Below, piece after piece: positions 8,280 through 11,438 of a stretch of 31,963 bases of DNA (positions are counted from its first letter, which is position 1; each line of letters starts with the position of its first letter). The notes under the pieces are model-generated. The model saw nothing but the letters and a program-made list of their open reading frames with translations. It did not search any database and had not been told where the DNA came from. The stretch is from the IMG/VR virus record IMGVR_UViG_3300026210_000006, one strand, 5' to 3'. The position numbers and the translations under genes are program-made. Source of the DNA: a virus.

Positions 8280-8942
8280 TTATCCCTTTATTAGATGAGT
8301 TTTCTTTATTGAAAGTGGTATTAATCCAACCCAAATATACGCATAGTATGGTAGTTTTACAAGGGAATTAAACAACTGACTGATCCCTAAACCAGATACA
8401 ATACTTGTTGTAAATATTGTATGTTTCATAGTACAGGGGGCATCCTCTATTTCTGCACTTGGTACCCAACTTTCGTTAAAGAAATCATTATCTTTTGTTG
8501 TTGTAATAATCTCCATTGCAAGTGCATCCATACGTAAATCAATCAAAAGCTGACGATTAGGTAATTTTACCCATTCATCATAAGCATCTCTTCTAACTTC
8601 CATATTATCGGTGGCTAAGATTACTTTGGGAAGCATAACATCTAAATCATATGTCCAATTTATTTCGGACATATCAGCATCTTTCGCACCAAATGCTAAT
8701 GCCAAATCTCTAGCTGCCTTTGCCTTGGGAACATCTAACATATTTATAGGATATAAACAACCAGATAAGTTATGTTCTTCAAGCTTATCTTCATCATATC
8801 CTATTATAGTATCCCATCCCATAATGGACAAGAGGGCAATGACATTACTGCCAATGCCCCCTAAACCAATTACCATTATTTCATCAAGTTTGTTTTGTGG
8901 AATTAAATCCTTATTTCGTAAGAATCTATTTTCTAGCGCCAT
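8280..8942 (-). CDS. ThiF/MoeB/E1-like adenylyltransferase (ubiquitin-activating E1-like)
   Basis: VIGLGGIG, YDEDKLEEHNL, KAKAA, ATDN...RR, IDLRM, and a candidate catalytic Cys in EDAPCT. AAGGAGG RBS before Met16 of the track ORF (8942). Confidence 0.9.
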   Translation of the reverse strand: MALENRFLRNKDLIPQNKLDEIMVIGLGGIGSNVIALLSIMGWDTIIGYDEDKLEEHNLSGCLYPINMLDVPKAKAARDLALAFGAKDADMSEINWTYDLDVMLPKVILATDNMEVRRDAYDEWVKLPNRQLLIDLRMDALAMEIITTTKDNDFFNESWVPSAEIEDAPCTMKHTIFTTSIVSGLGISQLFNSLVKLPYYAYIWVGLIPLSIKKTHLIKG

Positions 8943-8952
8943 ATTAACCTCC

Positions 8953-9810
8953 TTATTTACTGTACGATTGATATTCCTTTGTATCATAAGTCATTCCAAA
9001 GAATTCAAGAGGGTCTCTTATACCAACCTTTTCTAGTTTAAGCGTGACTTGATCCCAAGACATTAATCTATTTTCCCATGCATCAAAGCATTTATATACC
9101 ATTTCTTCTTCTTTGTTGCTTAGTACAGGATAATAGCTTTCCTTACTAGACTTAATATCATTAACTGACACTTTGGCAGACTTTTTTTCAATAGGAAAAT
9201 GTTTATATCCATAGCTTTGACCATAGTCGCCATGTCCATAATTGATTATACCTTGTCCATTTTTCCTTGTCCAATGATTTGTTGCTTTTGCAGTCTTTTT
9301 GAGTGTCTTAGCGATATCCGCCCAGTCTTTCTTAGGTTTTATTAATGGTAATATCTCACAATCATCATCAGATTCTACCAAATGAGGAATTTGATACTGA
9401 TCTTTATATGACACTGCAAATGCATACTTTTCCTTAGCAGTTGCAACCACAAGACTTGGATAAAATCCAATATCTGGTGCCATTTCTTCTAAAGTATCAT
9501 CATCAGTATCACTAAAGAATGCACCCATAGTATGATGACTGTGAACTAACCCTAAATAACATTTCTTTAATTTAGGATTAATTTTTATCTTCTCCTTAAG
9601 TACTGAGAGCATAGTTTTAGAATCCCATTCTGTCGAACTATGAGTACCTAAGTCAAGAGGATGAAAATCCAATAAAACAAATTCCTCTGGAAATTCATTC
9701 TTTTCTTGCTTACAAGCAAACCAGCCTGGCCCACTCCATTCTTTCTTAGGAAATGTCTCTAAGAAATAATTAAGTTTGGTCAAAACTGGCTTTAAAATCG
9801 TTAACTTCAT
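8953..9810 (-). CDS. JAB/MPN+ (JAMM) metallopeptidase, deubiquitinase-like
   Basis: Glu24 (KEWSG) plus HSHHTMGAFFSDTD, which is H-x-H-x7-S-x2-D (H90, H92, S100, D103). AAGGAGG RBS. Confidence 0.92.
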   Translation of the reverse strand: MKLTILKPVLTKLNYFLETFPKKEWSGPGWFACKQEKNEFPEEFVLLDFHPLDLGTHSSTEWDSKTMLSVLKEKIKINPKLKKCYLGLVHSHHTMGAFFSDTDDDTLEEMAPDIGFYPSLVVATAKEKYAFAVSYKDQYQIPHLVESDDDCEILPLIKPKKDWADIAKTLKKTAKATNHWTRKNGQGIINYGHGDYGQSYGYKHFPIEKKSAKVSVNDIKSSKESYYPVLSNKEEEMVYKCFDAWENRLMSWDQVTLKLEKVGIRDPLEFFGMTYDTKEYQSYSK

Positions 9811-11098
9811 TTTTGAGCCTCCTTATTGATTCTTTACTGTTCTTTATCGCCATTCTATATGCTATAATCCCAGAATCATATAGTAATTTATCAACGTTAT
9901 CCAAATTAGTTCCTTCTTGAAATAACGCTTCAATTCCACGATTTCTAAGCAATCTTCTTTTTCTTGCTGCTGTCATAGATGACCCAGTTAATGCTACCTC
10001 ATTTATTGTCTGATTAAGAATCTGTTCCATTCTTTTCTTCATGATTATATCCCAGTGACTACGTCTCCATTGATTCCCAAGTGGATGATTATAATAATAA
10101 AATATTATATCAAATTTTGAGAAAGTATGTGAAGCTTCAGTTCTAAATGAATTAATTACAGTTCTAAAATCACTATAAACAAGGTCTAATTTCTCACAAT
10201 TAGCTATAGATGTTTGAGCATTACTACCCCAAGTCCAGTCAGTTCCTTTTAATTTAACTATTCTATGCCACATTTCAAGGAATGGATGTTTATCTATTAC
10301 CACATCAGATACAAGACCAGAAGGAGGTACAAGAGCAATAAATCTATCTAATCTATCCTGTTGACAAACTTGAAATCTATTTACTTTATCAATCCAAGAT
10401 TCATCAAATTTGCCAGTTTTTCTTTTGACAGATTCACATATATCTGCCACGATATTTGCATTTCTTCCCCATTCACTAATATATATATATACTAGTTCAG
10501 CATATGTTAGATATTTATATCCTCGTTCTGCCCTAAAAAAGTAATTATAACAATCATTTACATTCCAATATGGACTATTCACATTCCAAGATAATAGGAA
10601 TTGTTTTATTGTTAATAATGCAGCAGCATAATTATAGATACCTAAACAATTATATATTGGTTTTTCAAAATCACCAAGACACGCATCACCAGTGCCAGTT
10701 GAAATATGTGGATGTCTTGCGGGAATAAGCAATTCATAATTTACCATATCAGCTATAGAATCGAATTCCATTCCATAGCATAATAATTCCTCTTCATTGG
10801 AATGAGGGGCTATATTATAGTACGTTATTTTTGGATAGGTTTGACTTCCCTTAGAGAAACAAACATATATGTCCCATAAATGATATACTCTACTACCACG
10901 TAGTTTAATATTATCAAATTTGACATAGAAACTTTTATAGTCTCTTCCTACTTCTACCCAATCAAACTTGTTTATTAATAGGGTAGCTTGTTTCTTTACT
11001 ATAGTTGTTGATACATTTAATACTGGGACTATATTCTTAATAACCTTAATTAATGCATTTCTTTTTAGTACTTTTTGTTTTAACTCTGAGTATTTCAT
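9770..11098 (-). CDS. Prokaryotic E2/UBC-like domain protein with a long C-terminal extension
   Basis: HPHISTGTGDACLG (H129-P-H131, C140) followed by the helix and FLLSWNVNSPY, a UBC-fold HPx...Cys pattern. Sits between the Ubl and the JAB; AGGAGG RBS. Confidence 0.72.
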   Translation of the reverse strand: MKYSELKQKVLKRNALIKVIKNIVPVLNVSTTIVKKQATLLINKFDWVEVGRDYKSFYVKFDNIKLRGSRVYHLWDIYVCFSKGSQTYPKITYYNIAPHSNEEELLCYGMEFDSIADMVNYELLIPARHPHISTGTGDACLGDFEKPIYNCLGIYNYAAALLTIKQFLLSWNVNSPYWNVNDCYNYFFRAERGYKYLTYAELVYIYISEWGRNANIVADICESVKRKTGKFDESWIDKVNRFQVCQQDRLDRFIALVPPSGLVSDVVIDKHPFLEMWHRIVKLKGTDWTWGSNAQTSIANCEKLDLVYSDFRTVINSFRTEASHTFSKFDIIFYYYNHPLGNQWRRSHWDIIMKKRMEQILNQTINEVALTGSSMTAARKRRLLRNRGIEALFQEGTNLDNVDKLLYDSGIIAYRMAIKNSKESIRRLKNEVNDFKASFDQT

Positions 11099-11117
11099 TT
11101 TGTCCTCCTAAGTATAA

Positions 11118-11207
11118 GATAAGTGACCCTCAGGCAAGAGCGCCGTTCGCTTTTCCACATCGTCTCATCAGGTACCAATAGATGATACTCCCCAAAGATC
11201 ACTTATC
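11118..11207 (-). promoter_or_regulatory. Structured element between the Ubl and E2 genes
   Basis: GATAAGTGA (11118-11126)/TCACTTATC (11199-11207) 9-bp closing helix with internal hairpins, ending just before the E2 RBS. Confidence 0.45.
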
Positions 11208-11228
11208 CAAGACATCGAATAAATCAGA

Positions 11229-11438
11229 TTACTTACCTGATTTAACTTTTGCTTTCTGCATTCCAACCAGGTCATCATCTCTAAGTTTATGATTAGCCGG
11301 GACAGACTTCCCATCTACCGATATCTCAACTTCATTAATAGAGATATTTAAACTCTCTGCGATTCCTGCTGGTGTATCTCCGGCCATTTCCAGAGGTACG
11401 CTACCATTATGGTAGGAAACTAACGTTATGTTAGGCAT
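11229..11438 (-). CDS. Ubiquitin-like beta-grasp protein (ThiS/MoaD-type Ubl)
   Basis: 69 aa with a beta-beta-alpha-beta pattern, ISVDG...KLRDDDLV (LxDGDxV-like) and C-terminal KSG-K. AAGGAG RBS; adjacent to E2/JAB/E1. Confidence 0.82.
   Translation of the reverse strand: MPNITLVSYHNGSVPLEMAGDTPAGIAESLNISINEVEISVDGKSVPANHKLRDDDLVGMQKAKVKSGK

Follow-up and report, generated by a model that had tools for sequence, protein, structure and literature searches.

Does a tailed phage own a ubiquitin-like conjugation system? To our knowledge, the prokaryotic systems in which such conjugation has been demonstrated so far are all anti-phage defences encoded by the host (CBASS Cap2, Bil and Bub). The question is raised by positions 8280-11438 of IMG/VR record IMGVR_UViG_3300026210_000006, the 31,963-nt stretch analysed here (the window). 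The original prediction read this region as four adjacent co-oriented genes with ribosome-binding sites (RBS), encoding a 69-aa beta-grasp ubiquitin-like protein (Ubl), a UBC-like protein with HPH and Cys140, a JAB peptidase with intact E24/H90/H92/S100/D103, and a ThiF/E1 protein with GxGGIG and a Cys in APCT, all carried by a virus. This description holds, and we consider it probable that the four genes constitute an intact, virus-owned module for ubiquitin-like conjugation and deconjugation, with the reaction order and the protein target being inferred.

Organization of the locus

All four ORFs lie on the minus strand, and each has a Shine-Dalgarno sequence. The cassette and the genes that tightly abut it are as follows.

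11229..11438, minus strand: Ubl precursor, 69 aa, beta-grasp; ends S67-G68-K69, with predicted mature end Gly68 (11237-11235) and cap Lys69
11099..11228, minus strand: gap between the Ubl and E2-like genes, 130 nt, closed by a helix of ~24 bp
9770..11098, minus strand: E2-like protein, 442 aa; residues ~25-210 (11026-10469) modelled as the UBC-fold domain, with HPH129-131 and predicted catalytic Cys140
8953..9810, minus strand: JAB/JAMM metallopeptidase, 285 aa; Pfam Prok-JAB, 7e-7, 29.5 bits against a cut-off of 25
8280..8942, minus strand: minimal E1, ThiF-type adenylyltransferase, 220 aa; RBS-supported ATG at 8942; Pfam ThiF, 3e-9
8276-7416, minus strand: Sak4-like AAA_24 ATPase (recombination gene); Pfam/PHROG matches
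7412-6792, minus strand: 206-aa protein of no known family
6792-4924, minus strand: primase-DnaB-type helicase; Pfam/PHROG matches

Terminase, portal and major head protein were found in the window, which is a contig of an uncultured marine tailed phage; the claim that a virus carries the machinery is thus correct.

E1 and JAB proteins

For E1, the RBS-supported ATG at 8942 was taken as the start, the mechanical ORF beginning farther upstream, at 8987. The protein scores 36.7 bits against Pfam ThiF (cut-off 28.1) and meets the glycine-loop, acidic, Lys, Asp and Arg criteria. GLGGIG occupies residues 26-31, and C170 lies in APCT at 8435-8433. Across 36 sequences, R9, N10, G26, G28, G29, D50, D52, H57, N58, K73, D112, R117, C170 and K173 are invariant; the Arg of the usual NxxRQ motif is missing, the segment reading EEHNLS. 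The whole protein is one Rossmann-type domain of ThiF size, without a separate Cys domain or UFD. Searched against the PDB, the E1 profile matched the SUMO E1 subunit SAE2 best (2e-9), followed by UBA5, UBA3, ThiF, MoeB and BubCD. These alignments end near residue 120 and do not reach C170, which is invariant also in the cultured phages FpV4 and crAss001. The family comprises at least 210 clusters in metagenomes and is abundant in marine ones. Among 185,579 prokaryote species genomes, no relative exceeded 31% identity over at least half of the protein. Given this lack of close prokaryotic relatives, the family looks virus-restricted.

The JAB protein exceeds the Pfam Prok-JAB cut-off and has the complete E...HxH-x7-S-xx-D motif, with E24 followed by H90-S-H92...S100..D103 at 9543-9502. 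Residues H90, S91, H92, S100 and D103 are invariant in eight sequences, including FpV4 gp51 and crAss001 Gp77, and the EWSG segment containing Glu24 is conserved. We predict that the enzyme trims the Ubl cap; possibly it also removes conjugates.

The E2-like protein

Assignment of the E2-like and Ubl proteins was the weak point of the cassette, and is now backed by fold models, by invariant residues and by the behaviour of the Ubl tail. An AF2 model of the 442-aa protein (residues 10-175 at pLDDT 85-95) shows the N-terminal helix, antiparallel beta-meander and helices of a UBC fold. The absence of this fold would have refuted the original prediction, but the N-terminal domain does model as UBC. 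When the model was compared with 48,161 PDB chains, the top ~30 matches were all UBC, UEV or RWD domains, the best having a Z of 6.9 and an rmsd of 3.6 A over 132 residues. E2s took ranks 1-5 and 7-10, with a UEV-like domain at rank 6. Foldseek, a check that had been proposed for all four proteins, likewise gave Ubc13 and other E2s as the best domain-sized matches (prob up to 0.94; Ubc13 TM by target 0.48). As Z values up to 6.9 are middling, we base the fold call on how uniform the match list is, together with the motif. H129, P130, H131, C140 and W171 do not vary among 26 homologues, whose identities go down to 16-26%. In the model, HPH (10714-10706) and C140 (10681-10679) follow the last strand (124-126) and precede helix 142-153, as required of an HPN-type motif. 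One caveat here is that this placement was read from the model, without residue-level structural superposition on known E2s.

Support from sequence families is lacking. No curated E2 family (Pfam UQ_con, Prok-E2_A to E) was matched at E up to 1 in 26 family members, and no model in Pfam, NCBIfam, PHROG or PADLOC recognises the family. A PDB profile search with the whole family returned only coiled-coil noise, and no E2 by sequence. The Atlas row for the protein leads to a viral Prok-E2_D cluster, 15-40% of whose members carry Prok-E2_D. Residues 216-442 form a helical extension of ~230 aa, and relatives range in total length from 407 to 663 aa, except for one 211-aa fragment.

Could the 442-aa protein instead be a non-catalytic adaptor of the UEV/RWD type? 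Only E1, Ubl and JAB would then matter enzymatically, with E1 conjugating directly or merely binding Ubl and the Cys being structural. UEV and RWD domains are indeed among the fold matches (Z 5-6.3), and the want of an E2 family match would be in keeping with such a role. However, HPH and a Cys 8-11 residues on are invariant in 26/26 homologues and in all eight loci with this gene order (see below), and they sit where E2s have HPN and the catalytic Cys, past the beta-meander and directly before a long helix. Inactive UEVs, by contrast, characteristically lack the catalytic Cys. We therefore regard the adaptor as very unlikely and retain the E2 assignment. Complex prediction for E1 with the E2 N-terminal domain (score 0.01) gave no evidence either way.

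The Ubl and its C-terminal tail

The Ubl model (pLDDT 87) has the beta-grasp order of strands and helix, with Mth1743, SUMO (SUMO1/2) and TtuB as the best Foldseek matches (TM 0.6-0.74). Pfam searches with 40 relatives gave ThiS for 11 and TGS for 10, all weakly; ThiS and MoaD are also automatic names that some sources give to relatives of this protein. In the tail, across 76 clusters, Ser-Gly is invariant and is followed by no residue in 10, by one in 50 and by 2-24 in the others. The protein thus meets the criteria for a beta-grasp modifier, namely the fold and a conserved C-terminal Gly as free end, although this end is a single Gly and not Gly-Gly. Type II BilA behaves in the same way, and its cleavage after the conserved Gly by the JAB protein BilC has been shown biochemically (PMC10557695). 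We count this likeness in favour of JAB-trimmed conjugation.

A role as sulfur carrier has to be weighed at this point. The Ubl would be a ThiS/MoaD/TtuB-like protein that is adenylated by the ThiF-like enzyme and acquires a thiocarboxylate, the sulfur would end up in a cofactor, in a thionucleoside or in modified phage DNA, with no protein conjugate formed, and JAB would act in maturation only, as Mec+ does for CysO. Several features are compatible with this: E1 has a single domain of ThiF/MoeB size, and its best NCBIfam matches are ThiF models, although all fall far below cut-off (31.5 bits against 159 for the best); TtuB and Mth1743 rank high among the Ubl folds; and there are the names ThiS and MoaD. 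Moreover, C170 lies 58 residues past the Asp of the DN motif, a spacing that we take to equal that of ThiF Cys184, used in sulfur transfer. On the other hand, neither the window proteins searched nor the Pfam calls of related loci include a rhodanese, cysteine desulfurase, ThiG/ThiH, MoaE, CysM or TtuA-like partner. The E1 profile ranks the eukaryotic E1s for SUMO, UFM1 and NEDD8 above ThiF and MoeB. Finally, a UBC-fold protein with invariant HPH...C always lies between the Ubl and JAB genes, and we know of no need for such a protein in sulfur relay. A sulfur-carrier role is not formally excluded, but it seems to us a poor account of the locus, and conjugation remains our preferred reading.

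The Ubl-E2 gap

The 130-nt gap folds at -37.5 kcal/mol (z -1.85). Gaps of 64-148 nt are found in the same place in 7/7 related loci and form stronger hairpins (z -2.4 to -4.3), at least one of which (locus L012) appears by eye to have a GC stem with a U tract downstream. The helix may reduce read-through or make the Ubl message more stable, leading to unequal amounts of tag and enzymes; a hairpin after the Ubl gene, albeit weaker in the window, fits an excess of tag over enzymes. Separately, a hammerhead-like pattern noticed by eye (CUGAUGA...GAA) suggested a ribozyme or riboswitch, an idea that was dropped for want of an Rfam match: nothing in the gap reached gathering thresholds, and only noise appeared at E up to 10.

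The cassette heads a conserved replication module

The order Ubl-E2-JAB-E1, recombination gene, ~200-aa protein, primase-helicase recurs in seven of seven related metagenomic loci (eight with the window), with catalytic motifs intact in each. With the same four cassette genes, their order and their motifs persisting at 30-60% identity, the pattern goes far beyond chance. A consensus scan from 13996 to 4000 detected no minus-strand terminator-like site, and we propose joint expression of the cassette with the early genes for replication and recombination. Scanning viral contigs with a single E2-like protein recovered only two near-identical IMG/VR contigs, and 50,697 phage records gave no match either to the cassette in a nucleotide search or to the 442-aa protein in tblastn. 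Overall, the cassette behaves, throughout a whole lineage of phages, as a fixed core block that heads the replication module, and not as a mobile accessory. Given this position, the most likely targets are phage or host proteins of replication, recombination or takeover, although none has been identified.

Conjugation might instead be real but serve conflict, disabling host defence proteins or co-infecting rivals (as Bil tags tail fibres), or JAB might strip host Bil/CBASS conjugates. All characterised prokaryotic E1/E2/Ubl/JAB systems do act in phage-host conflict (PMC10557695, 10.1101/2023.09.04.556158, PMC11601596). The cassette also sits in the early arm, where early expression is expected. 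Yet it is fixed and syntenic in the replication module of every relative examined, down to ~30% identity, whereas counter-defence genes are usually variable accessory genes, and comparison of its proteins with Bil and Cap3 sequences revealed no relationship. We consider a role in conflict unlikely, and favour conjugation to replication, recombination or takeover proteins.

A more specific version of the latter places the E2-like protein at the replication fork. A pattern similar to the motif by which bacterial proteins bind the sliding clamp, Q-x-x-[L/M]-F, occurs within the last 40 residues of 8 of 26 representative relatives and nowhere else in these proteins (~12,000 residues). Looser Q-x-x-L-x-F forms are seen in several others; the window protein ends just short of this position. 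Among the window ORFs searched, none was recognisable as a DNA polymerase gene. Together with the location of the cassette, these observations suggest that the E2 could be tethered to the host beta-clamp/replisome, with Ubl tagging replisome or repair proteins, an idea that we offer as a long shot. If true, bacterial viruses would have their own equivalent of PCNA ubiquitination and SUMOylation, one at work in the most abundant human-gut phages should crAss-like phages share it.

Related genes in cultured phages

FpV4 gp51/gp50 and crAss001 Gp77/Gp76 are JAB-E1 pairs homologous to that of the window, and such a pair is also present in DAC15. The window E1 matched FpV4 (6e-12) and crAss001 (5e-6) in tblastn, and JAB matched FpV4 gp51 in BLASTP (1e-15). 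Both pairs share the invariant residues and the place in the replication module. In the records, ThiF carries the annotation 'thiamine biosynthesis protein', while JAB is called hypothetical in FpV4 and a metalloprotease domain protein in crAss001. The crAss001 E1 also differs in having an N-terminal extension of ~150 aa.

Upstream of each pair lies a ~420-444-aa protein carrying Y-M-H-S-H...C, preceded by a protein whose ~85-aa N-terminal region ends in K-x-K-S-G; this putative Ubl, unlike that of the window, is fused to a C-terminal tail of 135-205 aa. Profile alignments (hhalign) were weak. The E2-like profile gave a short, non-significant HxH...C alignment (E 0.063) or nothing with crAss001 Gp78 and FpV4 gp52, and the Ubl profile was colinear with FpV4 gp53 over residues 1-84 (E 0.019) but aligned only the KSG tail of crAss001 Gp79. 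A relationship of these candidates to the window proteins is hence not statistically established; E1/JAB homology, gene order and motifs are what link the cultured phages to the cassette.

Proposed mechanism and implications

On present inference, the Ubl would be produced as a precursor ending in ...K-V-K-S-G-K, from which JAB would remove the cap and expose Gly68. The minimal E1, probably a homodimer, would adenylate Gly68 and may hold the Ubl on the invariant Cys170 before handing it to Cys140 in the UBC-fold domain of the 442-aa protein. The helical C-terminal half of that protein might pick the target, with the Ubl going to a lysine, and JAB may also reverse the mark. Against conjugation stand the absence of biochemical evidence (no thioester, conjugate or target is known), the want of an E2 sequence family for the 442-aa protein together with its middling fold scores, an E1 that lacks the NxxRQ Arg and has an architecture resembling that of sulfur-carrier activators, and, for the Ubl, the single Gly at its end and the names ThiS or MoaD given to relatives.

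What distinguishes the present case is that the virus itself owns a complete, conserved Ubl set that is core to its replication module. Our literature search turned up no paper describing a Ubl cassette carried by phages, crAss included, but many subscription papers lay outside it, and absence is therefore unproven. With their JAB-E1 pairs and likely Ubl and E2 partners, the cultured phages FpV4 and crAss001/DAC15 make phage tagging directly testable with phage and host in the laboratory. What is learned would bear on the spread and evolution of E1-E2-DUB cascades.

Comparison with known systems

The comparison with PRTRC, Bil and CBASS made at the outset stands as a functional analogy but not as classification: the cassette passes no curated PRTRC or Cap2 model, and it lacks the defining architecture of Bil or Bub. 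Nor does it meet the criteria for a ThiS/ThiF or MoaD/MoeB pathway, given that no ThiF or MoeB equivalog model was passed and no sulfur-transfer or cofactor neighbour was seen among the window proteins searched or in related loci. CBASS Cap2 is an E2-E1 fusion beside a CD-NTase, whereas E2 and E1 are separate here and the window proteins searched include no CD-NTase. No Cap2 model passed over its whole length; only E1 residues 20-78 (Rossmann) matched PADLOC E1-E2 models, with scores not exceeding 23 bits.

PRTRC cassettes (NCBIfam TIGR03734-03742; Iyer et al. 2006, PMC1779556) similarly combine a small ThiF-type E1, JAB, an E2-like protein and a small Ubl on mobile elements, beside DNA maintenance functions, and their own function is unknown. 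Their carriers, however, are plasmids and ICEs rather than a tailed phage. The only match to a PRTRC model was that of JAB to TIGR03735 (PRTRC_A; 15.9 bits against a cut-off of 101.8), with none for E1, E2 or Ubl, and none of the two genes directly upstream and the three downstream of the cassette is ParB-like.

Type II BilABCD (Chambers et al.; PMC10557695) shares with the window separate genes for Ubl, E2, JAB DUB and E1 in the same order, and an E2 with a catalytic Cys, which is predicted in the case of the window. BilA, too, consists of one beta-grasp, and its universally conserved Gly is followed by a short non-conserved cap; in E. aridi BilA this Gly lies one residue before the end, and JAB cleaves after it (PMC10557695). 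Bil, however, is a bacterial anti-phage defence, whereas the window cassette is a fixed part of the replication genes of a phage. The E1 of Bil, BilD, has two domains, with inactive and active adenylation domains and a helical/Cys insertion (PMC10557695), in contrast to the 220-aa single domain found here; the E2 here has a helical extension of ~230 aa. No sequence relation of the window Ubl, E2 or JAB to Bil proteins (or to Cap3) was detected.

Type I Bub (BubAB/BubCD; Ye et al., PMC11601596) has the same module order, Ubl-E2 and then JAB-E1, and its JAB matures the Ubl, as we predict for that of the window. The Bub E1 is a compact, homodimeric ThiF-like protein without a canonical Cys domain (PMC11601596), as is that of the window, although there the homodimer is only probable, and BubCD is a weak match of the window E1 profile (7e-5). 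Bub, however, fuses Ubl to E2 and JAB to E1 where the window has four separate genes, and it works through oxyester (Ser) intermediates with an E1 devoid of a catalytic Cys (PMC11601596), while the phage cassette keeps an invariant Cys in both enzymes, C170 in E1 and C140 in the E2-like protein.

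Layout of the phage contig

The contig is that of a phage, as genes for the terminase, portal, major head protein and tail proteins were all found. The early/replication arm lies on the minus strand (~1900–14000) and has a lower G+C content than the rest of the contig. The values are 31–36% for this arm (over ~2000–13000), with negative GC skew, and 37–45% for the plus-strand structural arm, with positive skew. None of the ORFs searched was recognised as a DNA polymerase gene.

Principal genes of the contig
11438–11229, minus strand: Ubl (69 aa), Shine-Dalgarno upstream
11098–9770, minus strand: E2-like protein (442 aa), Shine-Dalgarno upstream
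9810–8953, minus strand: JAB (285 aa), Shine-Dalgarno upstream
8942–8280, minus strand: E1 (220 aa), Shine-Dalgarno upstream
25618–27108, plus strand: large terminase
27093–29288, plus strand: portal
30280–31575, plus strand: major head protein
Plus strand: tail proteins

The E1 start was set at the ATG at 8942, where homologues begin and which has AAGGAGG upstream; the mechanical ORF begins at 8987. The cassette adjoins genes for a Sak4-like AAA_24 ATPase, a 206-aa protein and a primase-DnaB helicase, and a consensus scan of the minus strand from 13996 to 4000 revealed no terminator-like site. The 206-aa protein (6792–7412, minus strand), called an SSB in the original prediction, had no match in Pfam, NCBIfam or PHROG, and a protein of ~200 aa fills its slot in every related locus.

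A UBC-like protein with few relatives

Searches of Pfam, NCBIfam, PHROGs and PADLOC gave no match to the 442-aa protein, and exhaustive phmmer comparison with 1.84 billion representatives returned only 25 relatives, with a common region at ~50–200. Residues H129, P130, H131, C140 and W171 are invariant in the resulting alignment, within the consensus H-P-H-I-S-x(3-5)-C-L-G ... W-N-x-x-S-P-Y-W-N-I-N. An AlphaFold2 model, built with the family alignment as input, places residues 10–175 at pLDDT 85–95, in the order helix, beta-meander, HPH loop, Cys and then helices. When this model was compared with 48,161 PDB representatives, the top fold matches were uniformly UBC, UEV or RWD (Z = 6.9 for UbcH10 and 6.6 for Ubc13, with more E2s next; 4.6 for CBASS Cap2). 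Foldseek gave Ubc13 and other E2s as the best domain-sized matches (probability up to 0.94), and the ESM Atlas leads to viral clusters, one of them annotated in part as Prok-E2_D. Taken alone, the Z values are middling. Because they combine with an invariant HPH...C in the canonical place, however, the predicted assignment to the UBC/E2 fold is well supported, in keeping with the UBC-like protein with HPH and Cys140 that was originally proposed.

The C-terminal ~230 residues are helical, partly poorly predicted, and variable in length among relatives. In eight of the 26 E2-like representatives, Q-x-x-[L/M]-F occurs within the last 40 residues and is absent from the rest of the protein. The beta-clamp-binding consensus is QL[SD]LF, and judged by sequence this C-terminal element resembles such a sliding-clamp-binding motif. 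Relatives with the form Q-x-x-L-F include those encoded in loci L006 and L012.

E2-like C-termini concerned
E2-like relatives P0005–P0014
L012 (related metagenomic locus): 4182–6173

Since the protein encoded by the window stops (at 9770) just short of this position, the motif concerns the family and not the window gene directly. Some relatives also carry a G-V-E-R-x-x-V-V tail; the window's subgroup has neither element.

A contig of a Gammaproteobacteria MAG (L014:4751–9735) encodes a distant E1 (31% identity), preceded by a JAB with an intact JAMM motif and a 488-aa protein. The latter has H-P-H-V...C-x-G close to its C-terminus rather than its N-terminus, and next comes a paralogue of 485 aa that shares this motif. 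This is another arrangement of the E2-like module.

E1 and JAB

Two of the proteins were expected to be a ThiF/E1 enzyme and a JAB peptidase with an intact JAMM motif, and both identities were borne out. The 220-aa protein scores above the cut-off of the Pfam ThiF model (36.7 against 28.1 bits), as does the 285-aa protein for Prok-JAB (29.5 against 25 bits). The JAB motif is complete, with E24 in E-W-S-G followed by H90-S-H92-x7-S100-x2-D103; H90, S91, H92, S100 and D103 are invariant (n = 8 sequences). In a 36-sequence E1 alignment, the invariant features are an N-terminal R-x-x-R-N element and the G-x-G-G-x-G loop; D50, D52, H57-N58, K73, the D112-N motif and R117; and C170, inside P-C-T-x-K-H-T. 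The E1 family profile scored best against the SUMO E1 subunit SAE2 (2e-9), followed by UBA5, UBA3 and UBA6, and then ThiF (1.5e-7), MoeB (2e-6) and BubCD (7e-5). All of these alignments are confined to the Rossmann part, so they do not settle what C170 does. At residues 52–62, E-E-H-N-L-S replaces the S-N-L-x-R-Q usual in ThiF, MoeB and E1 enzymes; the family lacks the Arg of the NxxRQ motif and has an invariant His directly before the Asn.

Ubl and the gap behind its gene

A profile search gathered 76 Ubl clusters, and K-V-x-S-G is common to all intact ones. S67 and G68 are invariant; the SG is followed by no residue in 10 clusters, by one of any kind in 50, and by 2–24 in the rest. The Ubl model (pLDDT 87) has the anticipated beta-grasp fold for this 69-aa protein, and resembles Mth1743, SUMO1/2 and TtuB, a carrier/modifier of Thermus (TM 0.6–0.74). 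About a quarter of the members match Pfam ThiS or TGS, weakly. The conserved Gly of Type II BilA likewise bears a disposable cap, and its cleavage by the JAB has been demonstrated (PMC10557695).

A gap of 64–148 nt always separates the Ubl and E2 genes; the other cassette genes overlap or almost touch.

Ubl–E2 gaps
Window: 11099–11228, minus strand
Related metagenomic loci: L005:762–858; L006:292–362; L007:2834–2983; L009:2083–2171; L010:2741–2890; L012:4115–4185; L013:4393–4530

All seven relatives have a strong hairpin here (z = −2.4 to −4.3), and the window has a ~24-bp closing helix (z = −1.85). The position of the hairpin is conserved but its sequence is not. In at least one relative (L012), inspection by eye shows a GC stem with a U tract behind it. 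We infer that this structure would let the tag outnumber the enzyme in synthesis.

Conservation and distribution

Five E2 relatives and two E1 relatives led to seven related loci, on contigs of marine Tara, JGI, ENA and Logan assemblies. Their proteins are ~20% (E2-like) to ~55% (Ubl, E1) identical to those of the window. Every locus has the order small protein, E2-like protein (467–663 aa), JAB and ThiF, followed by an AAA_24 or Slr1353_N protein, a ~200-aa protein and a DnaB_C primase-helicase. A script check found the SG tail, HPH...C-x-G, HxH-x7-S-xx-D, G-x-G-G-x-G and P-C-[TS]-x-K in all seven. We regard it as demonstrated that the components of the cassette are present, have intact active sites and are inherited together. 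Clustered at 90% identity, the E1 family forms at least 210 clusters, and the contigs that carry it reach ~54 kb. In a pattern scan of 185,579 prokaryote species (one genome each), no E1 covering half the protein or more exceeded 31% identity. Given the fixed gene order and motifs, the spread and the cellular rarity, the cassette acts like a core gene block in a marine phage lineage that is uncultured and apparently lytic.

A tblastn search with E1 matched 74 phage records, from FpV4-like Flavobacterium phages and crAss-like phages (including crAss001, the DAC15/17 and PhiCrAssBcn series, Kehishuvirus and Kolpuevirus). FpV4 grows on Flavobacterium psychrophilum, whereas crAss001 and DAC15 have Bacteroides hosts. 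The structural genes of cultured phages are only remotely like those of the window, and the primase-helicase gene hardly so.

Cassette-like regions in cultured phages
L001 (FpV4 locus): 1652–5663, gp53–gp50
L002 (crAss001 locus): 1238–5648, Gp79–Gp76

In FpV4, JAB gp51 (1e-15 to the window JAB) adjoins ThiF gp50; the corresponding pair in crAss001 is Gp77/Gp76. Both ThiF proteins retain C170 and most other invariant E1 residues; that of crAss001 has an additional N-terminal region of ~150 aa. The proteins preceding JAB (gp52 and Gp78, ~420–444 aa) have Y-M-H-S-H and then a Cys. An N-terminal region of ~85 aa in gp53 and Gp79 ends K-Q-V-K-S-G-G or K-K-I-K-S-G-A and is followed by a 135–205-aa tail, so that each looks, from its sequence, like the fusion precursor of a Ubl. 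Because profile comparisons to the single E2 and Ubl candidates were weak, these putative counterparts remain a strong lead and not demonstrated homology.

Proposed function

JAB would trim Lys69 from Ubl, and E1 would adenylate the exposed Gly68. Ubl, possibly after moving onto C170 of E1, would be transthiolated to C140 of E2 and then attached to a lysine on the target that the helical half of E2 selects; JAB may perhaps reverse the mark. Each of these steps is inferred, as is the existence of a target. The main rival, that the cassette serves as a sulfur carrier, is disfavoured because a UBC-fold partner is constantly present and no sulfur-transfer neighbour was found among the window proteins searched or in the related loci. 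The chemistry would also allow conjugation to serve in conflict, as counter-defence or in inter-phage competition, yet this fits the fixed core position less well.

Comparison with known systems

The nearest known systems in function and architecture are Type II Bil and Type I Bub. Like the cassette, Type II Bil has four separate parts in identical order and a capped Gly on its Ubl; however, BilD has a second domain, which the cassette E1 lacks. Type I Bub shares the module order and a compact E1, but has fusions and Ser chemistry, neither of which occurs in the cassette. PRTRC has the mobile-element theme in common, and the cassette proteins do not meet the PRTRC or CBASS Cap2 models. No description of such a virus-borne Ubl cassette was found in the literature searched. 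The cassette belongs to none of Bil, Bub and PRTRC, and we view it as a Ubl cascade carried by a virus and equipped with an E2 family of its own.
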